This document shows, piece by piece, positions 782 through 62,818 of a stretch of DNA of 64,000 nt (its first letter is position 1; each line of letters opens with the position of its first letter). The notes below the pieces were generated by a model, which was not told the DNA's origin, made no database searches, and worked only from the letters and a program-made list of their open reading frames with translations. Source of the DNA: Patescibacteria group bacterium (GTDB taxonomy: Bacteria > Patescibacteriota > Patescibacteriia > UBA1558 > GWA2-36-10); the NCBI GenBank assembly GCA_041650755.1, contig JBAZKN010000004.1:4624-68623 (forward strand), written 5' to 3'. A program made the position numbers and the translations under genes.

Positions 782-2339
782 ATTTATGGCTAATATAAAA
801 ATCCAAACTTCATCTGATATTGAATTTTCTAGGAACTTTACCATCGAAGATTTTAATAAAACGGTAAAGGATTTTGACCTAGTAGGTTCATTAATGTCTC
901 TGCAAAAATTAGGAGCGCTCATGGGAAATCAGGTTGCCGTAAATGTAAACTTGGAATTTGAATTCTATGCTTCACCTAAAATAAAACAGAGAGCCGGCAT
1001 GCTAACGAGGGATTTTGTTTCTTTTGCTGCAAAATACATTTTATTGAACTGCAAAAAACAAGAGCTACAGTACAATGATGTAGACTTGGCAAGTTTGGTT
1101 TATCTATATGGGAACTTGGAAATTGACCTTCATAAATTAAAATCCGGAGAAGAAACAAAAAAGAATGGCTGGCTTTGGGTCGTTAGGTCAACAAATCATC
1201 AATGGTATTATCTTAGATTTCACTCAAGCATTATTGCACGATATTATTGGATTTTTTCCAAAGTTTTTGAAAAAAACGAAATGCTTGGACAAAAATTGAA
1301 CCAAGCGTTGGATATGAATGTTTTTGATGCAATGAAGATTGGGACCTGCATCTACGCTAATTTCTGTCCACGAGAGGATGGTAAGTTTGCAACGTCGTTT
1401 TTGATGGATAGCTATACAAAAACTTCGATATTGGAATTAAGGCCATTGCTAACTGAACAAAATATCTTGAGATATTTTGATGTTTTTGCTATTACACAAA
1501 AACAGTTTCAAGAAGAAAACAAAAAGTTTGAGCTTGCGGATGACTCTTTGAAAAAGTACGAATTTAACCCTCTCAAAAGGTTCCCCGTAATCAAGACTGA
1601 TTCAGAAAAAAAGAATGAACAATATATAATCCCATCTCTCTCTGATTTTTTGTATGGCGCGTTTGAGGGCCTTTATTATGTTCTCTTAGATAAGTTGGAT
1701 GAGGCTGATAAAGCGACTTTACTTCAAGAAATTGGGAGTGTTTTCGAAATGTATATTGGAGAATTCTTAAAACAATACAACATTGATATTCTTAGTCGGG
1801 CTGTAATATTTCCGGAAAAAATATACAAAATTGGCTCCGATGAATGGAAGACCGTCGACTGGCTATTGGTTTCAGATGAGTACATTTTTCAGATTGAATG
1901 CAAGAAGAGAAAAATTGATACTTACTCGAAAGCAGGAATTCAAAGCGAGAATGGTACCGGTATTGATAATTTATTGGGAGATGTAGCTAAAGAGCTAGAT
2001 AAGATAGCTGAGAAAGAGAAACATATTAAGGAGAATAAAGTTGAGGGCGTAGCTTATAATGGCCAAAAAATTATTAATATGATTGTCTTTTTGGATGAAA
2101 TGTTTGGCATGAATGACTATGCTAGAGAGAAAATTAAAGAAAAGATGGAACAGCCTAGTAATAATTTTTATATATTTGGTTGCTGGGAATTTGAATTAAT
2201 ATGTCAGCAATCGAAAGACAAACAACAGAATTTGTTTTATTCAATTCAGGACTTAATCGCTGGTAGAGTAAATATTTATCACATTGATTTTCTTGATCGG
2301 GTTTACCATAATTTTTTTGATTCTATAAAAAGTACATAA
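759..2339 (+). CDS. Hypothetical protein with a PD-(D/E)xK-like nuclease motif
   Basis: 526-aa ORF. The segment TVDWLLVSDEYIFQIECKK (nt ~1853-1910) fits a hydrophobic-D ... hydrophobic-ExK pattern with 16-aa spacing. No Walker motifs seen. Translationally coupled to its neighbours. Confidence 0.6.
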   Translation: MNSENYYKFMANIKIQTSSDIEFSRNFTIEDFNKTVKDFDLVGSLMSLQKLGALMGNQVAVNVNLEFEFYASPKIKQRAGMLTRDFVSFAAKYILLNCKKQELQYNDVDLASLVYLYGNLEIDLHKLKSGEETKKNGWLWVVRSTNHQWYYLRFHSSIIARYYWIFSKVFEKNEMLGQKLNQALDMNVFDAMKIGTCIYANFCPREDGKFATSFLMDSYTKTSILELRPLLTEQNILRYFDVFAITQKQFQEENKKFELADDSLKKYEFNPLKRFPVIKTDSEKKNEQYIIPSLSDFLYGAFEGLYYVLLDKLDEADKATLLQEIGSVFEMYIGEFLKQYNIDILSRAVIFPEKIYKIGSDEWKTVDWLLVSDEYIFQIECKKRKIDTYSKAGIQSENGTGIDNLLGDVAKELDKIAEKEKHIKENKVEGVAYNGQKIINMIVFLDEMFGMNDYAREKIKEKMEQPSNNFYIFGCWEFELICQQSKDKQQNLFYSIQDLIAGRVNIYHIDFLDRVYHNFFDSIKST

Positions 2340-2364
2340 TAATCAAGGAACGGAAATTAATTAT

Positions 2365-3093
2365 ATGAATGGTGTTAAAAAATTTCTTAGGAGAACAGAA
2401 ACCAGTTTAATACAATTCTTTTTGTATGTTGGGGCTTTAATATATCTATTGGTAACGGGCCATGGCTGGCTTTCGGTTGTCTTCGTCCATCTCTTTTTTG
2501 TGGTTATCTATGGCATTATTTATTTCAGAGAAGATTTTTTATTGTTTTTCCTTTCGCCTGTAACGGCAATAATTTTCCCCATCCAAAATTACCTTTTAAG
2601 AAAATATTTAAAAAAATTTAAACAAAATATTCCAACAGAGGCGGTTATTGTTTTAGGGCGATCTGACTGGTTCAAGCTTGAAGCTTGGATTAAACATAAC
2701 TTTCTCAAGAGTGAAATTGAATCACTTATTAGATACTTGAAAGCAAAAGGCCAGGATTTTTCCTTTTACCCAGATGCAGATTTAAAGGATATTGAAAAAA
2801 TTATGAGTGATAAGAATATAAAAGAAGTGTATTTTTTCGGACACGGGACTTCGCATGTATTTCAACTGAGTGCCGATAATTATTTATATTATTGTGATTT
2901 TAATGATCAGCATAAATATGGGAAAGAATTTGTCCACCAGGTACACTGTGGCACCTCGGACGGAAAAAGCTTAGTTGATTATGTCGTTCCTAAAGAAAAC
3001 CAAAATGGATGCTTTCTTTTCAGAAAACCTATAAATTCCTTTGACATTCAAAAGGAGTTCAAAAGAAGGACTAAAAACTTAATAAAAAAATGA
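2365..3093 (+). CDS. Membrane-anchored hypothetical protein with a putative His/Cys motif
   Basis: 242 aa. The N-terminal ~90 aa are strongly hydrophobic (2-3 TM). The C-terminal domain carries EVYFFGHGTSH ... FVHQVHCGTSDG, which resembles a beta-strand-HG / beta-strand-xCxxSG catalytic dyad arrangement (speculative). Stop overlaps the next start (ATGA). Confidence 0.55.
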   Translation: MNGVKKFLRRTETSLIQFFLYVGALIYLLVTGHGWLSVVFVHLFFVVIYGIIYFREDFLLFFLSPVTAIIFPIQNYLLRKYLKKFKQNIPTEAVIVLGRSDWFKLEAWIKHNFLKSEIESLIRYLKAKGQDFSFYPDADLKDIEKIMSDKNIKEVYFFGHGTSHVFQLSADNYLYYCDFNDQHKYGKEFVHQVHCGTSDGKSLVDYVVPKENQNGCFLFRKPINSFDIQKEFKRRTKNLIKK

Positions 3094-8127: not shown

Positions 8128-8679
8128 CTACATGGGAATGCGCTCTGACTTGAAAGGCGGAGCCTTGTCGTCGGGCACCGGCAGCTGCCAAGTCCAGAAG
8201 CTGGAGTCCTCCAGAGAGGCGAGAGTGTGTCGAGCCGAAGGATCGGCTATGTGCAGGGAACCGGGCAGCAAGATCGAGCTATTGCCCAGCAGCGCATCTC
8301 TGTCGCTGCTGCAAAACCGCGACAACATCTGTCGAACCTGCTCAACTGTCAAGGTCTCGTGCTCGACGGCCAACAAGGCACCCTCGATGACACAAGTGAT
8401 CTCCAGACAGGTGCCATTGTGGCCGTGAAACTCTTGCACACAACCACCGGGCAGAATGGTGTGGATAGCCTGAGCCTGGACATTGAGGCGACCGATGATC
8501 AGCCCCTTGAAATAGGACCTGACCTCCACGCCGCCCTTCTGAATCATCTGGACGACATGGAGCTCACCGCGGACATCGTCTGGCTGCAAACGACACGAGC
8601 GACCAATATCTTCCCTACCCAAGCGATGATCAATGACGAGCCAACCAAGAGGTGGTTGAGTATACAGCATCGAGCTCAT
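8128..8679 (-). CDS. Hypothetical protein encoded in GC-rich island 1
   Basis: 183-aa ORF with GGGAGGG SD 5-6 nt upstream and a terminator downstream. High GC with a G/C-rich third codon position. The strand choice is uncertain because long ORFs exist on both strands. Confidence 0.35.
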   Translation of the reverse strand: MSSMLYTQPPLGWLVIDHRLGREDIGRSCRLQPDDVRGELHVVQMIQKGGVEVRSYFKGLIIGRLNVQAQAIHTILPGGCVQEFHGHNGTCLEITCVIEGALLAVEHETLTVEQVRQMLSRFCSSDRDALLGNSSILLPGSLHIADPSARHTLASLEDSSFWTWQLPVPDDKAPPFKSERIPM

Positions 8680-10879: not shown

Positions 10880-11425
10880 ATGGATCGAGAGATTTTGGAT
10901 CAAAAAATAAGAAAGGTGCCCAATTTTCCTAAAGACGGGATTCTATTTTATGATGTCACTACTTTATTTGAAGACAAAGATACTTGGCGACAGTTGATCG
11001 ATGAGCTTTGCTGGCCATATCAGGATAAAAAAATAGATAAAATAGTCGGCATTGATGCTCGCGGATTTTTATTGGCAGCCGCCATGGGCTACAAACTGGG
11101 CACCGGTATTTCTTTGGTCCGTAAAAAGGGCAAATTGCCCTACGCCACAAAACAAGCCACCTATGAAAAAGAATATGGCCCAGATACGGTAGAAATGCAT
11201 GCCGACACTATTCGACCAGGAGAAACTGTTTTGATAGTTGACGACTTACTAGCTACTGGCGGGACAATATTGGCTGCCATTGATTTGGTGGAACAAATGC
11301 AAGGAAAAATTATCGGCCTTGAATTCATTATTAATTTGTCATTTTTACCCGGCTTAAAGAAACTGCAAGCCAATGGATTTGTGCCACATTATTTAATCGA
11401 TTATGATAATGAAAAAATTAAATAA
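10880..11425 (+). CDS. apt: Adenine phosphoribosyltransferase
   Basis: LIVDDLLATGGT PRPP-binding motif. Real start is MDREILD at 10880, inside the longer predicted ORF. Confidence 0.8.
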   Translation: MDREILDQKIRKVPNFPKDGILFYDVTTLFEDKDTWRQLIDELCWPYQDKKIDKIVGIDARGFLLAAAMGYKLGTGISLVRKKGKLPYATKQATYEKEYGPDTVEMHADTIRPGETVLIVDDLLATGGTILAAIDLVEQMQGKIIGLEFIINLSFLPGLKKLQANGFVPHYLIDYDNEKIK

Positions 11426-17588: not shown

Positions 17589-18026
17589 TCAGGAGATCTG
17601 GTAGAGAGGTGTGCCGTGCCGAGAGCGTCGGCACTGCACCACTCCGCTACTCTGCAGAGCATCGAGCACCTGATCCAGTTCCTTCTGGCTGACCTGGCGT
17701 CCATGACGACGGAGCATCCGAAGAATCTCGCCAGATGGTCTGGCATTGCTCTGCCGCAGCAAGACAGCAAGAACTGCATCACGGCTCAAGCTCGGTTGAG
17801 AAGGCTGCGGCGACACAGCCACTGCGGCAACGCGCCGACCACCCGTAGGGCCAAGATCCACGTAGGCACCCACGCCCTTTGGACCACAGCTGGCCTGTGT
17901 GGGCTGAGCTAGCTTCGGTTGTTGCTCACGTCGAGCTCGCTCGACTCTGCCTTGCCTGGCCAGAGCGATGCAACCCCAGACACCCAGCGCCAGAATGACC
18001 AACGAAAGCGCTATTGAGAACCACAT
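17589..18026 (-). CDS. Hypothetical protein in GC-rich island 2: N-terminal TM helix plus a C-terminal winged-helix-like domain
   Basis: 145 aa with GGGGGAGGTG SD. One TM (WFSIALSLVILALGVWGCIAL). C-terminus EILRMLRRHGRQVSQKELDQVLDALQSSGVV is wHTH-like. Visibly GC-rich. Confidence 0.45.
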   Translation of the reverse strand: MWFSIALSLVILALGVWGCIALARQGRVERARREQQPKLAQPTQASCGPKGVGAYVDLGPTGGRRVAAVAVSPQPSQPSLSRDAVLAVLLRQSNARPSGEILRMLRRHGRQVSQKELDQVLDALQSSGVVQCRRSRHGTPLYQIS

Positions 18027-26800: not shown

Positions 26801-27055
26801 ATGTATAAATTATATATAATTCGAAGTCTAAAAACAAAAAAATACTACATTGGTATTAGTGCAGATTTGGAGCAAAGGCTACGTCACCATAATAGTGGGG
26901 CAAATAAATCTACTAGAAATGCTAAACCCTGGACAATAGTGTATACAGAGGAATTTAATGATAAAAAATCGGCATGGTTAAGAGAAAGACAAATTAAAAA
27001 ATATAAAAGCGGTGAAGCATTTAAAAAATTAATCAATCGTGGAGAGGTCGCATAG
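26801..27055 (+). CDS. Small GIY-YIG nuclease superfamily protein
   Basis: YKLYIIRSLKTKKYYIGISADLEQRLRHHN matches the GIY-(x10)-YIG ... R ... H(H)N core. 84 aa. Its last 15 nt overlap the tRNA-Ser. Confidence 0.65.
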   Translation: MYKLYIIRSLKTKKYYIGISADLEQRLRHHNSGANKSTRNAKPWTIVYTEEFNDKKSAWLRERQIKKYKSGEAFKKLINRGEVA

Positions 27056-32762: not shown

Positions 32763-34868
32763 TTACTCTGAAATCTTATTTAAATCATCATTGCTAATGC
32801 CTAAACTCAAATAACGCATAATCTGATAAGCGGCCGTACCATCCTTCATATAGTAACGCTTGCCATCTGCTGGGTTTACATACCAGGCTTCGCCATTGTT
32901 TTCCACCTGAAGTAATATTCTACCTTTTACTCTGTTCACCAAAGCTTGGTTAGTTGTACTACCGGCATTAGCCGTCGGTGGCAAAGTAATATTTAGACGA
33001 CTATCATTGCCGATAGGAATTTTTTGTAAATCAACATTTTTGATCCCCAGTCCGGTATCCCGCATAACTCCGTAAGCGGTCTCGCCGTCTTTTATATATA
33101 TTTTTTTGCCATCGGTTGGTTTGACATAATAAGCCTCCCCGCGAGATTCCACTTGCAGTAAAATTCTCCCCTTAACTCTATTTATCAATCCGGTTTCAAC
33201 TTTTATCGGTTTGGCCGCAACGGTGCAAGGACCTTCTTTATCACCATGAGCTAAGTGCGCGGCTAAAGCTGATTTCGCAATCTCCAAAGTGTTGGTTTTA
33301 TTATTACCCATCACATGGCAGACAAAAACTTTTTCTTCAGGAATATAGCCTGGAGAACCATAGGTAGTAAAATCAATAATTTTAGGAGCACCATATTTAT
33401 AACTAAGCTCCCCTGGTATACCAGCTGTCTTTTTTAGCTCTACATAATACTTAGTATCAGCTAATAAATTATTCAAGGTAACTATGCTGGCATTAATATT
33501 GCCCGTCACTGTCGCATCATCAGATACACCGCTATTTAACCAACTTATATTAGACAAAGCATTGGTATTAGTAGCATGGCGATACCAACCGTTGCTACCC
33601 ATATTTACTGCCTGCCAATATATTCTAGCCGAATTTGTAGTCAGCTGGTCAACTCTGGTTTCGGCAATATCCAAACTAGGTGAATATGAGCCCACGGTAC
33701 CTGTGACAAAAGAAAATTCAGTAAGCTGACCGTATTGACTACCAAGATTTTTTCTAACTTGAATATAATAAGTAGCGCCGGCATCCAGACCGGACAAGTC
33801 TACTTGGCTAGCAAACATGTTGCCAGTCACATCTGGATTATTACTGACCCCTTCTGTAAGCCAAGACAAATTACTCAATGCATTTTTATCTTTAGAATAA
33901 CGATATTCTCCGGTGCTACCAATATTTGCGCGCCACCAAATTCTAACGGAATTTTTCGTCACATTAATCGCTCTGTACTCAATAACATTGAGTAAATTAG
34001 TATCATAAACGGTAATCCATTTGCTGGCACTATTATTCCAAAAACTTAATTCAGCGTCTGTATCATGGGGATTATAAACAAAGCTAATAAACTCATTTCT
34101 CTTTTTTGGATATGTGCCCTTGAAGCTATAATAAAAAGTATCCCCTGGTTTAATTGGATTGGCGCTAGATACTTTAGGCATAGTAGTTTCCGTTACCACC
34201 AAATTACCCAGCACTTTATAAATATTATCTAATATAGCTTGGCTGGTAATATTAGTGGTGCCGGTATTTCTAGCCTGTATTTTAATTTCTACTGGCTCAT
34301 TCACTATCGGCATATCCGGTATTATCTGAATATAATCTACCCCAATATCCGGACCTCCAACCGCCTCACCAATGGTATCAACTATGCCCTGAAATGTCCC
34401 GGCACACCAGTGGATATCATTTACTTCATACTTTTTTGTAAACTGATAATAACAAGCTTGACTATAATCGTTGTTATACCAATTTGCTATCAAACTAATA
34501 TCTGATAAGTTAACTTTGCCGTCATTATTGATATCAACAATTTCATTATAAGTCTGCGTGCGCACAGCATCACTCACCAACCCAAACAAAGAACTGCACC
34601 AGCTATCACTAACAGAATAATTAGGGCTACTGCCGGTTGTATTTTGTGGGGCAGATAACTTTGATTGGTAAAATTGATAACACTTTGCATGATTATTGGA
34701 AGTGAGCCAACCAGATACCAGACTGGTATCTGATAAATTAATTGCCTGGTCTTTATTAAGGTCAAAAATGTTGGAATAGCGACCAACGTAAATGCTGGCT
34801 GAACCAGACTGAGCCATCAATAAAAATGCCAAAGCTATTATTAACCCTAGATAAACTTTTTTAGACAT
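32763..34868 (-). CDS. Secreted protein with dockerin-like Ca-binding repeats, FN3-like domains and two C-terminal repeats of about 55 aa shared with the S11 peptidase
   Basis: Signal peptide. DLNKDQAINLSDTSL and DINNDGKVNLSDISL are dockerin or EF-hand-like. There are two W.RA/WQA FN3-like repeats. C-terminal NRVKGRILLQVE..GEAWYV.P.DGKRYY.KDG repeats. Confidence 0.6.
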   Translation of the reverse strand: MSKKVYLGLIIALAFLLMAQSGSASIYVGRYSNIFDLNKDQAINLSDTSLVSGWLTSNNHAKCYQFYQSKLSAPQNTTGSSPNYSVSDSWCSSLFGLVSDAVRTQTYNEIVDINNDGKVNLSDISLIANWYNNDYSQACYYQFTKKYEVNDIHWCAGTFQGIVDTIGEAVGGPDIGVDYIQIIPDMPIVNEPVEIKIQARNTGTTNITSQAILDNIYKVLGNLVVTETTMPKVSSANPIKPGDTFYYSFKGTYPKKRNEFISFVYNPHDTDAELSFWNNSASKWITVYDTNLLNVIEYRAINVTKNSVRIWWRANIGSTGEYRYSKDKNALSNLSWLTEGVSNNPDVTGNMFASQVDLSGLDAGATYYIQVRKNLGSQYGQLTEFSFVTGTVGSYSPSLDIAETRVDQLTTNSARIYWQAVNMGSNGWYRHATNTNALSNISWLNSGVSDDATVTGNINASIVTLNNLLADTKYYVELKKTAGIPGELSYKYGAPKIIDFTTYGSPGYIPEEKVFVCHVMGNNKTNTLEIAKSALAAHLAHGDKEGPCTVAAKPIKVETGLINRVKGRILLQVESRGEAYYVKPTDGKKIYIKDGETAYGVMRDTGLGIKNVDLQKIPIGNDSRLNITLPPTANAGSTTNQALVNRVKGRILLQVENNGEAWYVNPADGKRYYMKDGTAAYQIMRYLSLGISNDDLNKISE

Positions 34869-37179: not shown

Positions 37180-37208
37180 TTGACAAAAAAATATATTTAT
37201 GCTATTAT
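37180..37208 (+). promoter_or_regulatory. Sigma-70-type promoter upstream of the NfeD-like/flotillin pair
   Basis: TTGACA-N17-TATTAT lies in host-like AT-rich sequence immediately before the GC-rich island. Confidence 0.45.
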
Positions 37209-37378
37209 GCAACGTTTTGGCTAAACGGCAAAAATGGAGCCTTTGGTTAGCCAAGGGGTTCCTTAAAAGTCATACATCATTGTTGTTCAGCATCGATATC
37301 TGCACACTCAAGGTGCCAGTAGACAGGACGCAGCAATTCAACACTGCTGCCGGTTTCTTCCAACGAAAGGGGTCTACG

Positions 37379-37978
37379 ATGCTCGCAGTCCTGGCAATGA
37401 CCTTCTGGCAAAAGCTGGGGAACGACATCGGAATGATGGTGTTCGCTGCCCTGGCGATGATCGGTGGGGTCTTCACCTTGATCTCCATGATCTTCGGTCA
37501 TGGCGACCACGACGTCGGCCACGACTTCAGCGCGGGCGACCACGACTTCAGCGCGGGCGACCAGGATGACAGTGCCGGCTCGAACTTCTTCTCGGTTCGC
37601 AACATCATGCTCTTCATGACCGGATTCGGCGGCATCGGCATGCTGGCCAAGTACAAGGGCGCTGACTTCATCGAGAGCAGCTTCTGGGGCGCTTTCTCTG
37701 GCCTCATCATGGCGTTGATCGGCTATCTGATCTACCGCGCTCTCTACAAGAGCCAGGCCTCGTCGCACATCGACAACTCGATGTTGCGCGGTTCAATCGC
37801 GCAAGTGGAAGAGCCCATCGTCCAGAACGGCGTGGGCATCATCGTGGCCGGGGGCGAGATCAACCACATCGTCCGCCTCCGAGCCAGAACCAAGGAGGGC
37901 ACGCCGGTCCCGAGTGGCCGCCAAGTCCGCATTCTGGAGGTCAGCGGCACCGAAGCTCTGGCCGAAGCGCAGCAGTAG
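37379..37978 (+). CDS. NfeD-like membrane protein (flotillin partner)
   Basis: GAAAGGGG SD. Two TM helices, an acidic HDFSAGD repeat, then a C-terminal OB-like domain (GVGIIVAGGEINHIVRLRARTK ... RQVRILEVSGT). High GC. The supplied ORF's upstream extension is probably untranslated leader. Confidence 0.6.
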   Translation: MLAVLAMTFWQKLGNDIGMMVFAALAMIGGVFTLISMIFGHGDHDVGHDFSAGDHDFSAGDQDDSAGSNFFSVRNIMLFMTGFGGIGMLAKYKGADFIESSFWGAFSGLIMALIGYLIYRALYKSQASSHIDNSMLRGSIAQVEEPIVQNGVGIIVAGGEINHIVRLRARTKEGTPVPSGRQVRILEVSGTEALAEAQQ

Positions 37979-38042
37979 TCTACACCACCCACCCAACTCC
38001 ATCCAGTGAAGGAGACGAGTCATAGAGCAGGCAACCCACCTC

Positions 38043-39788
38043 ATGCAGTACCTGATCCCGGCGATCGTACTGTTCGTACTGATCGCCTTCGGCGGTGTGA
38101 TCCGTCTGGCGGCCAGGAATTACATCAAGGTCGCGCCCAACGAGGTCGCGATCGTGTGCGGCAGCCGGCACAGGACCTCGGTCATCGTACCCGGCCAGGC
38201 AGAGCCGAAGAGCGTGGTTCGAGGCTTCAGGATCGTCACCGGCGGTGCCTTCTTCAAGATCCCGATCCGTGATCGGGTCGAGATGATGAAGCTGAACCTG
38301 ATGCAGATCTCCGTTCAGGTCGTCAACGTGCCTGACATCAACGGCGTGCGCATCTCGGTCAAGGGCATCGCGAACCTCAAAGTCTTGTCGGACATGGCCT
38401 CGTTGGTCCTGGCCGTCGAGAGGTTCCTGGGCTTTGGCCTGGATTACATCGAGAAGGTAGCCAAGGAGAACCTGGAGTCCAACCTCCGCGCAGTCGTCGG
38501 CAAGATGGCCGTGGAGGAGCTGATCCGTGACCGGACCAAGCTCCAGCAGATGGTCACCGAGGAAGCGGTCCAGGACATGGCCAAGATGGGCTTGGGTCTG
38601 GATCTGATGAACGTCCAGGAGATTTCGGACGAGCAGGGGTACATCGAGGCCTTGGGCAAGAAGAGGACGGCCGAGATCAAGCGCAACGCCACCATCGGCG
38701 AAGCCGAAGCCCTGCGCGACGCCGCCATCAAGTCGGCCGAGGCCAAGCAGGCCGGCGAGACCGCCAAGGCGGCCGCCGAGCAAGCCATCAGCGACGCGAA
38801 CAAGGACATGGACGTGCGCATCGCCGAGAACAATGCCACGGTGCAGGCTCAGAAGGCCAGGATTCCGATCGTCGCCAACCAGGCCGCGGCCGAGGAACAG
38901 CGGATCCTGAACGTCAAGCTGGTCGAGGCCGACAAGGCCAAGACCGAGGCCGAGATCCTGCTGCAGGAAGCGGCGCAGAAGCGACGCGAGGCCGAACTCG
39001 ACGCGACCACGATCATCGAGGCCCAGAAGAGCAAGGAGGCCAAGATCATCGAGGCCGACGCCGAGGCGCAGGCCGCGGAACGCAAGGGCGAGGCCTACCG
39101 CATCCAGCACTCCAAGGAAGGCGAGGGCAACCAGGCCAAGCTGACCGCCGAGGCCAAGGGTCGCAAGGAAGCGGCCAGTGCCACTCAGGCGGAGCTGGTA
39201 GCTCAGGCCGAGGGCAAGAAGGCCGGACTGCTGGCCGACGCCGAGGGCAAGAAGGCCGGACTGCTGGCCGACGCCGAGGGTGTCAGGCAGACTGGTCTGG
39301 CTCGTGCTGCGGGCGTCGAGGCCGTCGGTCTGGCCGAAGGCAAGGCGTCCGAAGCCAAGGCCGCGGCCTACAAGCAGTTGGATGGCCAGGGCATGATGCT
39401 CATGTTCATCCAGCAGTCTCCCGAGGTCATCGAAGCCCTCGGCAAGGCCATCGGCAACGCCATCGCGCCGTCGGCGAACGCCATCGGGCAGGGCCTGGCC
39501 AACATCCAGGAGCTGCGCATGGTGGATCTCGGCGGCGGAATGTCCGGTTCCGCCGGCAAGGACAACATCCTGGGCCAGTTCACCAAGATGCCGATCGAGA
39601 CCATCTACGGCTTGGTGGAGCGGATGAAGGCCACGGGCATGGCTCCGGCCATCATCAAGCTCGCCAAGGACAAGTTCGGGCTCGATCTCGAGTCCGTGTT
39701 CGCCGGCGCCCCGAACCCGAAGCAGTCGCCGAGCGGTCGGGATGCCACGCATCCGGAAGGTGATGATGGCACCGCTGCCGCGGCTTAG
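38043..39788 (+). CDS. Flotillin (SPFH/band-7 domain protein, FloT/YuaG-like)
   Basis: N-terminal hydrophobic hairpin, an SPFH domain, and a long Ala/Glu/Lys-rich coiled coil with EA repeats. High-GC codon usage. Confidence 0.8.
   Translation: MQYLIPAIVLFVLIAFGGVIRLAARNYIKVAPNEVAIVCGSRHRTSVIVPGQAEPKSVVRGFRIVTGGAFFKIPIRDRVEMMKLNLMQISVQVVNVPDINGVRISVKGIANLKVLSDMASLVLAVERFLGFGLDYIEKVAKENLESNLRAVVGKMAVEELIRDRTKLQQMVTEEAVQDMAKMGLGLDLMNVQEISDEQGYIEALGKKRTAEIKRNATIGEAEALRDAAIKSAEAKQAGETAKAAAEQAISDANKDMDVRIAENNATVQAQKARIPIVANQAAAEEQRILNVKLVEADKAKTEAEILLQEAAQKRREAELDATTIIEAQKSKEAKIIEADAEAQAAERKGEAYRIQHSKEGEGNQAKLTAEAKGRKEAASATQAELVAQAEGKKAGLLADAEGKKAGLLADAEGVRQTGLARAAGVEAVGLAEGKASEAKAAAYKQLDGQGMMLMFIQQSPEVIEALGKAIGNAIAPSANAIGQGLANIQELRMVDLGGGMSGSAGKDNILGQFTKMPIETIYGLVERMKATGMAPAIIKLAKDKFGLDLESVFAGAPNPKQSPSGRDATHPEGDDGTAAAA
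39207..39272. repeat. Perfect 33-bp tandem duplication inside flotillin, with a partial third copy
   Basis: GCCGAGGGCAAGAAGGCCGGACTGCTGGCCGAC occurs twice, encoding AEGKKAGLLAD x2. Confidence 0.85.
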
Positions 39789-39837
39789 TAGAACAGACCG
39801 TCATTGACGGGATGATCTCATAGCTGGGTAGCTCTAT

Positions 39838-39872
39838 AGGGGGCAAGGTCCCACGACCTTGCCCCTTTTTCT
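39838..39872 (+). terminator. Rho-independent terminator after flotillin
   Basis: GGGGCAAGGTC-CCAC-GACCTTGCCCC followed by TTTTTCTTTT. Confidence 0.75.
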
Positions 39873-39873
39873 T

Positions 39874-41169
39874 TTACTTATTAAATTGCCGAGAAAAATT
39901 TATAATAGCAAAAAATAAAATACATAAGCCCACCCAAGAAGTCCAAAGATAGTGATCAAATAATCCTAAAGCTAAAACACTGATCAATAAACTAAAGCCA
40001 AAAAAATCCGGCTTGATTTTTTTTCTAAAAAATCTCCAAAGCAAAAATACCAAGCTCAAAAAACCAATTAAGCCGATTTCCCCCAGAGCCAGCAGATAAA
40101 TATTATGAATCGGCTGAAAGTCATAAGACATTTTATGCTTTTGCTCTGACTTTGCCCAGGCCACAAAAGTATTGGTGCCCAAACCTTGACCCAAGATCAC
40201 TTCTTTGGGGTTGCGCCAATTGATCTGTTGCCAGGAGCTGATCCTTTGACTGGTAGAAATATCTTCTAAGCGCCCCCTGGACTCGATCCGATTCAGCCAG
40301 GCATTGGGTAAAAAATAATTTATCAACAAAATAGATAAAATCAACAGTACAAAATATTTGATAATGATTTGCCGCCACAAGTTTAGCTTGTTTTTTAGAC
40401 TAAAAATAAAAATCAACAATATAAATACTAGCAAAGCTAGTAAAGCGCCACGAGAAAAGGTCAAAGCTAGCCCGGCAGTTTGCAGAACTAAGGCAATAAT
40501 AACAATGATTAGATGCCACCAGCTTTTTTTCATGAACTCCCTTGACCACTGACTGTTTTCGCCAGCCTGATAAATCTTTTGCCACCAATAAACGCTGGCA
40601 ACAATGCTGACTAGCAAAAATCCGCCCAAAACATTGGGATGAGTAAGCGCTCCATAAGCTCTTAGCCACCTTTGATCGCCAACCTGCACTACTGACGCGC
40701 CCGGATCTTTGGCTAGATGCTCGGCTAATCCCAGCCACTTATCAGCGGATATCTTTTGGCTAAAAAATTGCCCGATAGCCAGGACAGCTTGTCCTGTGCC
40801 GCTAATAAGCCAAGCTAAAGACAAAAAATCCCAGCTAAATTTTTTACTAAGCAGGGCAAAAAGCAAAGCCAGAATCACCAAGCCTAGATAATAAAAACTT
40901 ATTAACGGCCAGCTGGAAAAAATGGAAATCAAGACTAGGTAAAATAAAAAAATATACAACCATTTGTTTTTTGACCAAGCCAATCTTGGTTTTTGACTAA
41001 AAAAATTCACGACTAAGGCAGCTAATAAAATTATCATGCTGCCATAAAAGCTCAAACGGCCATACTCCCAAACCTGACCGCCTAAACTGGCATCAAAAAA
41101 TATCCATCTGGTCTGCCAGGGCAGCGAAACAATAAAAAGAAAAATAAAAATTTTAGCTAATCTATGCAT
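39874..41169 (-). CDS. O-antigen ligase / Wzy_C-like polytopic membrane protein
   Basis: About 12 TM helices. ALTHPNVLGGFLL resembles the Wzy_C H...G.G...F motif. Start taken at MHRLAK (41169) to avoid overlap. Confidence 0.5.
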   Translation of the reverse strand: MHRLAKIFIFLFIVSLPWQTRWIFFDASLGGQVWEYGRLSFYGSMIILLAALVVNFFSQKPRLAWSKNKWLYIFLFYLVLISIFSSWPLISFYYLGLVILALLFALLSKKFSWDFLSLAWLISGTGQAVLAIGQFFSQKISADKWLGLAEHLAKDPGASVVQVGDQRWLRAYGALTHPNVLGGFLLVSIVASVYWWQKIYQAGENSQWSREFMKKSWWHLIIVIIALVLQTAGLALTFSRGALLALLVFILLIFIFSLKNKLNLWRQIIIKYFVLLILSILLINYFLPNAWLNRIESRGRLEDISTSQRISSWQQINWRNPKEVILGQGLGTNTFVAWAKSEQKHKMSYDFQPIHNIYLLALGEIGLIGFLSLVFLLWRFFRKKIKPDFFGFSLLISVLALGLFDHYLWTSWVGLCILFFAIINFSRQFNK

Positions 41170-42796: not shown

Positions 42797-42825
42797 ATAA
42801 AAAAAGGCGGCCAAAAGCCGCCAAG
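42797..42825 (-). terminator. Terminator of the twin-peptide operon
   Basis: GGCGGC-TTTT-GGCCGCC hairpin followed by TTTTTTAT on the minus strand. Confidence 0.6.
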
Positions 42826-42853
42826 CAGGGCAAGGAAAGCCGCCGGGCCAGTC

Positions 42854-42937
42854 CTAGACAACAGGGGCTGAGGTAAACAACCCCATACCAACCAGGATGC
42901 CCAGGACAGCGATCAGAAAAAGCAAACGCTTGATCAT
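42854..42937 (-). CDS. Small hydrophobic peptide 2 of the operon (27 aa, MIKRLLFLIAVLGILVGMGLFTSAPVV)
   Basis: AGGGGG SD. A single predicted TM with N-terminal KR. Paralogous to the upstream peptide. Not in the supplied ORF track because of the size cutoff. Confidence 0.45.
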   Translation of the reverse strand: MIKRLLFLIAVLGILVGMGLFTSAPVV

Positions 42938-42960
42938 GCTGGACCCCCTAAAGACAAGGG

Positions 42961-43047
42961 TCAGTTGATGGCCGCAAGGCTGGCCAGCCCCATGCCAACC
43001 AACACCGCCAGCATCAGAATCAGAAACATGACCCTCTTAATATTCAT
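42961..43047 (-). CDS. Small hydrophobic peptide 1 of the operon (28 aa, MNIKRVMFLILMLAVLVGMGLASLAAIN)
   Basis: GGAGGAGG SD 9 nt upstream, with a promoter upstream. A single TM. Confidence 0.45.
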   Translation of the reverse strand: MNIKRVMFLILMLAVLVGMGLASLAAIN

Positions 43048-43103
43048 ACTGGCTAGCCTCCTCCAACGCTGATTGCCCACAGAAACAACGCAAGTACGCA
43101 CTA

Positions 43104-46101: not shown

Positions 46102-46137
46102 AAAAATAAAAACCCGAGCCGCTTAAGACAGCTCGGG
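46102..46137 (-). terminator. Terminator for the small GC-rich ORF 46159..46350
   Basis: CCCGAGC-N11-GCTCGGG hairpin with a T-run on the minus strand. Confidence 0.5.
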
Positions 46138-46158
46138 CCTGTTTCCTGCCCTGCCGCG

Positions 46159-46350
46159 CTAGACGCCGGGCAGATGCTGATCAGGGCCACCCGACGAACC
46201 GATATCTGGGAAAATCGGTCCAGGTCGGCGGGAACGAGGCAGTACTTCTGGAGGCGGTTGCCCATCGCTGATTGGAGTAGTAGAACCCGAACAGTCCGGC
46301 TCAATACCGGGGTCTGAGCCAGAACCAGTTGAAAAGCATTTATCTTCCAT
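46159..46350 (-). CDS. Small Gly/Ser/Pro/Asp-rich protein (63 aa) in a GC-rich island
   Basis: AAGGAGAGG SD immediately upstream of MEDKCFSTGSGSDPGIEPDCSGSTTPISDGQPPPEVLPRSRRPGPIFPDIGSSGGPDQHLPGV. Low-complexity, with 2 Cys. Terminator downstream. Confidence 0.4.
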   Translation of the reverse strand: MEDKCFSTGSGSDPGIEPDCSGSTTPISDGQPPPEVLPRSRRPGPIFPDIGSSGGPDQHLPGV

Positions 46351-59153: not shown

Positions 59154-59471
59154 ATGCCACGACGAGGCAGAAGAAATCGCTTCCACTTCAGTCCATTGGA
59201 CTGGGTAGGAAGCCTGACCCCAGACGAAGCAGATGCCCTGCTGGCACACATCCATGAAGTCACGCCGCAGGACAACAGTCTCGCATCTCAACGCATTTGG
59301 GTGATCAATCTTCTGATCCTCCAGCCGGCGGTCGTAAGCCGGGGCTACATCAGCCAGAAGCCCAGCCATCAGAGGCTTTTGCGGGTTTTTGGCATGACAC
59401 CCAAGCTAATCGAACAGCGTCTGTGGCGACTTTGGCAAGAGGTCTGCCCAGCAGAACTCCGGGTTGGCTGA
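59154..59471 (+). CDS. Hypothetical protein (105 aa) in a GC-rich island
   Basis: GGAAAGGAG SD, high-GC codon usage and a strong terminator downstream. Possible HTH-like segment RLLRVFGMTPKLIEQRLWRL. Confidence 0.4.
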   Translation: MPRRGRRNRFHFSPLDWVGSLTPDEADALLAHIHEVTPQDNSLASQRIWVINLLILQPAVVSRGYISQKPSHQRLLRVFGMTPKLIEQRLWRLWQEVCPAELRVG

Positions 59472-62602: not shown

Positions 62603-62818
62603 ATGTTCAGATTCTGTTGGCGACACTTTCGCGTAGTCATTGGCCCACTGTTGATCGCTTACGCAAGTCCGATCCTGCCGGTCAAGTGCCTCGCCGGCAC
62701 TCCGACCACCCCGCAGATCATTCTGTCCACTCTGGTATATCTGGCCCTGCTCGGCATCGCCGTGCTTTGGACCCTGCGCTTCGTGTGCAGCGAGAGCTAC
62801 CAGAATGGCACAGTTTGA
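62603..62818 (+). CDS. Small 2-TM membrane protein (71 aa) in a GC-rich island
   Basis: GAGAGGGGAGG SD. High GC. A GGAGGAGC-N6-GCTCCTCC hairpin lies downstream (62835-62856). Confidence 0.35.
   Translation: MFRFCWRHFRVVIGPLLIAYASPILPVKCLAGTPTTPQIILSTLVYLALLGIAVLWTLRFVCSESYQNGTV

Follow-up and report, generated by a model that had tools for sequence, protein, structure and literature searches.

The window analysed here, 64,000 nt of contig JBAZKN010000004.1 from a Patescibacteria genome, contains two co-oriented genes in a sharply bounded GC-rich island, the first for a short NfeD-type membrane protein and the second for a flotillin-type SPFH protein (Table 1; coordinates are window positions unless another locus is named, and L-numbers such as L001 denote the contigs or loci of relatives used for comparison). 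The genes are separated by 64 nt and share one promoter and one terminator, and the interval is one intact transcription unit of promoter, 5′ untranslated region (5′ UTR), NfeD, flotillin, and terminator. GC content is 62.8% at 37326-39875 compared with 41.9% over the whole window, which puts the coding GC of the unit ~20 points above its genome. GC at the first, second, and third codon positions (GC1/2/3) is 0.65/0.40/0.88 in the flotillin coding sequence and 0.57/0.41/0.86 in the NfeD-like one, while GC3 of the other 45 window open reading frames (ORFs) of at least 120 aa is 0.42 ± 0.07 with a maximum of 0.68. On the left the unit is bordered by groES (Cpn10, 9e-27) and on the right by a gene of the Wzy_C O-antigen-ligase family (1e-14), both on the opposite strand. 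An earlier note on this DNA had described a flotillin/NfeD operon of strongly foreign-looking composition between these two genes, with an AT-rich promoter and leader and a strong terminator, and the codon-position GC, domain, profile and fold matches, promoter consensus, and terminator energy reported below all bear this description out. The note had also proposed acquisition from a high-GC donor followed by capture under a host promoter. We instead consider it probable that this is an intact, self-contained unit that has long been resident in its clade, moves with its own promoter and leader, and has retained its GC richness.

Table 1. Features of the NfeD-flotillin unit and of the adjoining groES upstream region, in window positions
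Feature	Position	Strand	Details
σ70-type promoter TTGACA-N17-TATTAT	37180-37208	+	11/12 consensus matches; TG ahead of the -10 (extended -10)
Conserved AT-rich 5′ leader, ~75 nt	37214-37288	+	Alignments with homologous leaders
Local hairpin GGAGCCTTTGG-TTAG-CCAAGGGGTTCC	37236-37262	+	RNAalifold, pair counts; -12.8 kcal/mol
Variable part of 5′ UTR	37289-37378	+	Ends in conserved ribosome binding site GAAAGGGG (37365-37372)
Short NfeD-type membrane protein, 199 aa	37379-37978	+	Profile, model and fold matches
Flotillin-type SPFH protein, 581 aa	38043-39788	+	Band_7 domain at residues 29-223
Perfect 33-bp tandem duplication (AEGKKAGLLAD x2.2)	39207-39280	+	Inside the flotillin gene
Intrinsic terminator	39838-39877	+	13-bp G+C-rich stem, 4-nt loop, T-run; stem-loop at 39838-39867
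groES promoter TTGACA-17-TAAAAT	37123-37095	-	Divergent from the promoter of the unit
CIRCE-type palindrome TTAGCACT-N9-AGTGCTAA	37083-37109	-	In the groES leader

Public records annotate the first gene as a 259-aa ORF from 37199 that extends through the leader. Because the conserved ribosome binding site (RBS; GAAAGGGG) and the aligned start codons of homologues both point to 37379, we take this to be the true start. Alone, the window protein falls below the Pfam NfeD (PF01957) cut-off (15.1 vs 29.1 bits). A profile of it and five homologues found 2,605 relatives in the full-scan library, PF01957 was matched by 19 of 35 sampled relatives (best 5.7e-9), and the family profile matched Bacillus subtilis YuaF (PDB 2k14) at 2.3e-10. 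An AlphaFold (AF2) model (predicted local distance difference test score, pLDDT, of 69) has three transmembrane (TM) helices at residues 2-38, 73-92, and 97-128, a disordered His/Asp-rich loop, and a C-terminal β-barrel at residues 138-197 that matches the NfeD C-domains 2k14, 3cp0, 3wwv, and 2exd; the TM-score normalised to YuaF is 0.73. The top fold match of the full model is YbbJ of the QmcA-YbbJ complex (TM helices plus OB domain), with a poor full-length fit (TM 0.29-0.35). As judged from its sequence and predicted structure, then, the smaller protein is a short NfeD of the YuaF/YqiJ type. The long, protease-bearing NfeD type was rejected, given the length of only 199 aa and no match to a ClpP-like serine protease domain. 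The His/Asp-rich loop carries HDFSAGD twice, encoded by a perfect 21-bp tandem repeat (37519-37563); the repeat is also present in L002, P0123 has a third repeat unit, and the loop may be metal-binding or variable in length. Wherever the contig of a lineage extends over the position upstream of flotillin, the NfeD-flotillin pairing is retained.

The larger protein matched Pfam Band_7 (PF01145) at 1.4e-24 and 87.5 bits against a cut-off of 23.6. Its translation begins with an N-terminal hydrophobic anchor (MQYLIPAIVLFVLIAFGGVIRLAA...) and has an Ala/Glu/Lys-rich stretch at about residues 225-440, both read from the sequence. The match to the NCBIfam FloT model NF058507 (3e-52, 178.2 bits) is below the equivalog cut-off of 700, and by sequence the protein is a member of the flotillin family but not a FloT equivalog. 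A search of PDB sequences returned human flotillin-1/2 at 5e-35 to 1e-31 over residues 64-379, with prohibitin, QmcA, and stomatin at only 2e-5 to 8e-5. Because flotillin-1/2 are by far the best relatives of solved structure, we place the protein in the flotillin subtype and not with stomatin, prohibitin, or HflK/C. An in-frame ATA at 38022, seven codons ahead of the window ATG at 38043, aligns with the ATG start of the L002 flotillin, and an RBS-like GAAGGAGA at 38010-38017 suits the upstream position better than 38043. Locus L001 (repeat at about 11165-11205) is 100% identical to the window over 21.7 kb except for one copy of the 33-bp tandem duplication, a difference that could be either a real length polymorphism or a repeat collapsed in assembly.

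Both genes are preceded by regulatory sequence that is conserved beyond this genome. The stretch from the -35 hexamer to about +5 is conserved in L002, L129, L135, L153, and L155, and also in L152, whose downstream cargo differs. Similarity between the window and L002 begins with the -35 hexamer itself, extends as far as ...GTCATACATCA, is then lost, and returns at the RBS. The 5′ UTR is AT-rich and ~165 nt long. A covariance model of the leader matched upstream of every clade member (56-96 bits) and nowhere else in 296 kb of window and loci, and found nothing upstream of more distant Patescibacteria flotillins. A known RNA family was rejected as an explanation: an Rfam scan of the leader gave nothing at the gathering threshold, and the sole match at E ≤ 10 was a spurious small nucleolar RNA (13.5 bits vs a threshold of 100). 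The arms of the leader hairpin read CCTTTGG/CCAAGGG in the window and CTTTTGG/CCAAAAG in L002, with 88% of cells paired, one compensatory pair, and several G·U-compatible changes. This covariation is not significant for six distinct sequences, as 91 of 500 shuffles do as well. As we read the leader alignments, the block ATGTCATACATCA... also opens a putative mini-ORF, MSYI(I/T)R..., of 8-10 codons in L002, L155, L129, L135, and L153, in which differences between lineages fall mostly at third codon positions; in the window and L001 the T of its ATG is missing. The sequence between leader and RBS is not conserved, and the RBS block AACGAAAGGRGT is kept in the four closest leader lineages (window/L001, L002, L129, and L135) and not in L134. 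From this pattern of conservation, the leader is most likely an element of post-transcriptional control.

The 8-bp inverted repeat that the earlier note had singled out at the left junction is present (TTGGCTAA at 37217-37224, TTAGCCAA at 37247-37254), and its reading as an insertion junction was rejected. Perfect 8-bp inverted repeats of this kind occur in 22% of all 250-nt stretches of the window and in 12% of shuffles of the region, no less than chance would give, and this one lies inside the conserved leader, is overlapped by the leader hairpin, and is not conserved as such in homologous leaders. At the other end, the terminator folds at -24.5 kcal/mol (z = -5.4; 0/200 shuffles fold as well) and abuts the wzy stop codon at 39874.

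We searched for flotillin homologues among 5.8 billion proteins. The best matches were the window's own metagenome-assembled genome (MAG), the near-identical L001, and a small set at 59-70% identity. Beyond these came a Fischerbacteria MAG at 53%, several Patescibacteria at 46-51%, an Actinomycetes MAG at 45%, and Acidobacteriota at 35-38%. All relatives above 55% identity are on low-GC contigs that are Patescibacteria-like where the flanks have recognisable genes, and none among the matches has a GC-rich context. These results, with the nearest match from another phylum being the Fischerbacteria MAG, give no support to the actinobacterial or proteobacterial origin that had been suggested from codon usage. 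On the contigs of the close set the two genes always form an island of 60-65% GC within flanks of 30-43% GC. A metagenome scan aimed at close relatives yielded the L002 contig once more and no other.

The GC-rich unit with the same promoter and ~75-nt leader was found in at least six other low-GC, Patescibacteria-like lineages and in three slots. In L002/L083, L135, and L155 it lies between dnaG and ogt/DUF5671; in L128-131 a Wzy homologue stands to its right as in the window; and in L132-134 a tRNA gene is immediately to its left and dnaJ to its right. L136 also carries the GC-rich unit, as an intact copy. The dnaG-ogt slot of the window holds only a small GC-rich gene (17589-18026) instead of the unit. 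In the most divergent clade member (59% identity) a tRNA with its own terminator is found immediately upstream of the promoter (L132 1-75, L134 1393-1470), and this adjoining tRNA is the only hint of a classical integration target. Because promoter and leader are conserved with the genes at these other positions (L002, L135, and L155; L132/L134), they belong to the unit and are not a resident host promoter, contrary to the earlier proposal of host promoter control. The recurrence also bears on the chance that a GC-rich fragment of another organism was joined into an AT-rich contig during assembly or binning. Abrupt composition steps at both ends would fit such an artefact, but the island is internal to the 64-kb window and to a 100-kb contig, its junctions coincide with a functional promoter and terminator, and the same fusion of AT-rich leader and GC-rich genes recurs in separate samples and assemblers (JGI, ENA, Logan, and NCBI), which makes an artefact hardly credible.

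For the groES-wzy slot we compared contigs carrying the nearest homologues of the window Wzy protein. L153/L154 are syntenic with the window over 17 kb (Wzy 50%, GroEL 88%, UvrA 90%), and in their slot the promoter and leader of the unit run directly into what is left of flotillin, its final ~640 bp, and then the terminator. An internal deletion has removed the NfeD gene and the 5′ two-thirds of flotillin (L153 9290-10130 (-)), and the remnant is ~62-66% GC in a 36% GC genome. L152 (Wzy 70%, GroES 90%) has another two-gene cargo in the slot, likewise GC-rich, and the promoter ahead of it can be aligned with that of the window between -35 and about +5 but no further. A truly empty site was not seen among L152 and L153/L154, which hold other cargo and a deleted copy, respectively. 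These contents indicate that the slot is variable and that the promoter can outlive its cargo, and the L153/L154 remnant implies either that a deep ancestor already had the flotillin unit in this slot or that the unit came back to it later. Decay was also seen in L135 (1948-3692), in which a 1-nt deletion splits flotillin into ORFs of 325 and 270 aa. An accessory pair in a variable slot that decays frequently (the L135 frameshift and L153 deletion) and whose proteins evolve faster than the host's at short range (flotillin 90% vs DnaG 97%) could be imagined as an anti-phage defence or other conflict system, which would explain its patchy and fast-evolving character. We consider this very improbable: neither NfeD nor flotillin matched any PADLOC model at E ≤ 1, there are no neighbouring defence genes, and the pair is built like the ordinary FloT/YuaF and YqiK/YqiJ operons.

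Divergence between copies of the unit was compared with that of host genes at two time depths. For the pair of window and L002, host proteins are 80-88% (sigma70), 62-68% (DnaG), and 69% (DUF5671) identical, and the unit proteins 74-76% (NfeD) and 69-71% (flotillin); identity at 4-fold degenerate sites above the expectation from composition (normalised) is 0.19-0.26 for host genes and 0.31-0.40 for the unit. L155 and L002 are much closer (DnaG 97%, sigma70 99%), and at 4-fold sites their host genes differ by 0.26-0.34 and their copies of the unit by 0.10-0.19. Their unit proteins are 81-91% identical, differing more than the host proteins. The ratio of unit to host synonymous divergence is thus ~0.6-0.7 at both depths, for which co-divergence with constrained synonymous sites is the simplest explanation. 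Host-like divergence means that any acquisition was old. On these sequence comparisons the unit does not appear to be younger than the host lineage, as divergence is host-like, no donor above 55% identity was found, and conflicts in topology are only partial. The earlier note would have given up its claim of foreign origin for a flotillin phylogeny congruent with the host and an unremarkable composition; the phylogeny turned out to be broadly host-congruent and the composition very atypical.

Recent import of the pair from an actinobacterial or proteobacterial donor, with later control by a resident host promoter, is unlikely in light of these results. The extreme contrast in GC3 (0.88 vs 0.42) with no signature of amelioration would suit it, as would the other cargo behind a seemingly identical promoter in L152, the closest relative by Wzy. 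GC-rich islands are also formed by flotillins in other Patescibacteria classes (L005, L010, and L053), of which L053 groups with Acidobacteriota; import from GC-rich phyla thus does take place in the superphylum. However, promoter and leader accompany the genes to other slots and genomes, which already contradicts the promoter argument, divergence between copies equals that of the hosts, a decayed copy is found in the same slot of a distant relative (L153/L154, Wzy 50%), and no GC-rich donor above 55% identity was recovered. A GC-rich donor may plausibly have supplied the unit originally, but such an import would be ancient and its donor not identifiable.

GC3 of the unit is 0.74-0.88 in all intact copies; if these copies are about one substitution per 4-fold site apart in AT-rich genomes, neutral amelioration should have lowered it well below such values. 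Under the Lawrence-Ochman regressions, GC3 of the unit would lie above the prediction from GC1, the opposite of an amelioration signature. Branch-specific changes over the whole gene were 8 GC-to-AT and 8 AT-to-GC in the intact L136, and 27 GC-to-AT vs 10 AT-to-GC in the frameshifted L135, with twice as many overall. Counting only outgroup-supported changes in the C-terminal region, the GC-to-AT:AT-to-GC ratio was 11:1 in L135 and 1:4 in L136. A further count, of L155/L002 differences polarised by distant outgroups (49 GC-to-AT vs 17 AT-to-GC), was discounted because GC-rich outgroups bias the inference. The numbers are small, and we treat them as a lead; they suggest that intact copies hold their GC while the frameshifted copy decays. 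A wider explanation, which we offer tentatively as a possibility below even chance, is that the promoter-equipped accessory units of the clade, of which NfeD-flotillin is the largest, are actively held at GC3 ~0.8-0.9 in genomes of 36-42% GC by synonymous-site selection or biased conversion acting only while the genes are intact. The same proposal would have the unit governed by an undescribed ~75-nt leader of hairpin and mini-ORF, with the mini-ORF lost in the window by the 1-nt deletion.

Several points weigh against a long-resident unit of retained GC. Identity of the L153 remnant falls from 96% with L136 through 93% with L135 and 80% with L128 to only 63% with the window, whereas by Wzy L153 is nearer to the window (50%) than to L128 (41%); unit and host trees therefore disagree in detail, and some exchange of the unit between lineages is likely. 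The unit tree is a rough neighbour-joining tree, the host relationships rest on few genes, and L001 and the window may share their raw data, which makes L001 a weak independent confirmation. With regard to base composition, GC3 of 0.88 with no amelioration signature is also expected of a fresh import, the whole-gene contrast between L136 and L135 is not significant (p = 0.125) on small counts, and polarisation with GC-rich outgroups is biased. The functions of the proteins and the leader are drawn from homology and conservation only.

The same conflict between trees would suit a unit that is currently mobile, a promoter-to-terminator cassette from an unsampled GC-rich reservoir (plasmid, phage, or GC-richer Patescibacteria) whose copies are fairly recent and arrived via recombination after DNA uptake. 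Occupation of three different slots, one directly after a tRNA gene, is consistent with mobility, as is a synonymous divergence that is lower in the unit than in host genes. Further small GC-rich ORFs across the window (described below), with promoters that are AT-rich and terminators that form hairpins, point the same way, and according to a published survey (PMC12455944) the donors in most detectable transfers into Patescibacteria are themselves Patescibacteria. On the other hand, no integrase or transposase ORFs and no flanking direct repeats were found in the window, where the sole tRNA is at 27041 and not at the unit. Phage or plasmid carriage was rejected, since the search returned no close copies on viral contigs or plasmids, with best matches of 32-37% and 35% identity, respectively, and no reservoir copy was seen. 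The ratio of ~0.6-0.7 at two depths also fits co-divergence better than random transfer times. We therefore regard current mobility as rather improbable, though less so than recent import, and continue to favour old residence with occasional movement.

Under that favoured history, the unit would be part of the pool of GC-rich accessory genes in a family-level Patescibacteria clade and would have been resident there about as long as the member genomes have been diverging. The whole of it, including promoter and leader, would have moved among a few slots (groES-wzy, dnaG-ogt, and tRNA-dnaJ), decaying or being replaced in some lineages, with its GC richness retained rather than eroded. By homology, the flotillin would be anchored in the membrane via its N-terminal hydrophobic segment, while its SPFH and coiled-coil regions would mediate assembly of a scaffold that is a large oligomer. 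NfeD, with its three TM helices and C-terminal OB-fold, may bind flotillin by analogy with the solved QmcA-YbbJ complex, and the two together would be expected to structure or stabilise microdomains of the membrane.

As an operon, this NfeD-flotillin pair is routine and of a well-known kind; what merits further study is its retained GC richness and its conserved leader. The unit is useful as a clean test case, as it shows that recent import is not the only possible source of a sharp GC island in a Patescibacteria genome and that an AT-rich promoter which looks host-like may have been inherited with the island. If intact copies truly maintain their GC, this would bear on how base composition is set in streamlined symbionts and on the reliability of composition-based calls of horizontal gene transfer in Patescibacteria genomes. 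In addition, the conserved leader may prove to be a new regulatory element, in this case of a membrane-scaffold operon whose hosts are unable to make their own lipids.

Small GC-rich ORFs. Further small ORFs of 55-61% GC occupy intergenic slots of the window at 8128-8679 (-), 17589-18026 (-), 42800-43050 (-; two hydrophobic peptides of ~27 aa), 46110-46350 (-), 59154-59471 (+), and 62603-62818 (+). All have an AT-rich promoter-like region, in most cases together with a G+C-rich hairpin terminator; no Pfam match was obtained for any of those tested. GC-rich accessory genes thus seem to be a general feature of this genome. A small GC-rich gene directly after dnaG is present in the window (17589-18026 (-)), L002 (8504-8920 (-)), and L155 (7216-7599 (-)), and encodes an N-terminal TM helix and a possible winged-helix-like C-terminus. 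Between L155 and L002 its protein is 81% identical and only 10% of 4-fold sites differ. Homology of the window and L002 genes was set aside as marginal only (E = 0.18).

Neighbouring genes and annotation. The groES promoter and the CIRCE-type palindrome are both kept in L152 and L153, and the groES upstream region is a classical HrcA-controlled groESL arrangement. Adjoining groEL is a 701-aa secreted protein (32763-34868 (-)) with weak fibronectin-III-like, purple-acid-phosphatase-N-like, and dockerin-like matches; the equivalent position in L153 holds a CARDB-domain protein. A 590-aa antisense ORF lies at 37980-39752 (-). Antisense stop codons need A at sense third positions, so at GC3 0.88 the ORF is an expected by-product of composition, and as it is also broken in L002 we rejected it as an overlapping gene. 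Public annotations of the NfeD-flotillin locus are wrong in several records, with over-extended starts and antisense ORFs picked in GC-rich DNA. Antisense or wrong-frame ORFs were called as genes at L002 9301-10002 (-) and L153 9371-10054 (+), and spurious calls occur in the GC-rich cargo of L152 at 1769-2215 (-) and 2304-2690 (+), where the actual cargo is two small ORFs on the other strand.

Comparison with known systems. The gene order is that of yuaF-yuaG (NfeD2-FloT) in B. subtilis and yqiJ-yqiK in Escherichia coli, in which a short NfeD immediately precedes a flotillin of 500-580 aa. With yuaF-yuaG the likeness extends to the OB-fold of NfeD (2.3e-10 to YuaF 2k14; TM-score 0.73) and to the FloT model (3e-52). 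The window unit differs from both in a flotillin far below the FloT equivalog cut-off (178 vs 700 bits), the HDFSAGD repeat loop, an AT-rich leader outside Rfam, and coding GC raised by 20 points. The eukaryotic flotillin-1/flotillin-2 complex (PDB 9bq2, 9l3g) provides the best solved-structure relatives by sequence, over residues 64-379, though the window protein is bacterial, a single paralogue, and paired with NfeD, and its C-terminal 200 residues are unmatched. E. coli QmcA-YbbJ (PDB 8z5g) offers a physical model of NfeD with an SPFH cage, and YbbJ is the top fold match; QmcA, however, is a stomatin-like SPFH protein that matches the window flotillin at only 2.7e-5, and the full-length NfeD model aligns at TM 0.29-0.35. 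Finally, the unit resembles horizontally acquired genomic islands in its sharp GC step, accessory content, variable slot between core genes, and one tRNA-adjacent copy. It differs from them in having no mobility genes or flanking repeats, in an AT-rich promoter and leader that are conserved with it, and in divergence that tracks the host with no visible amelioration.

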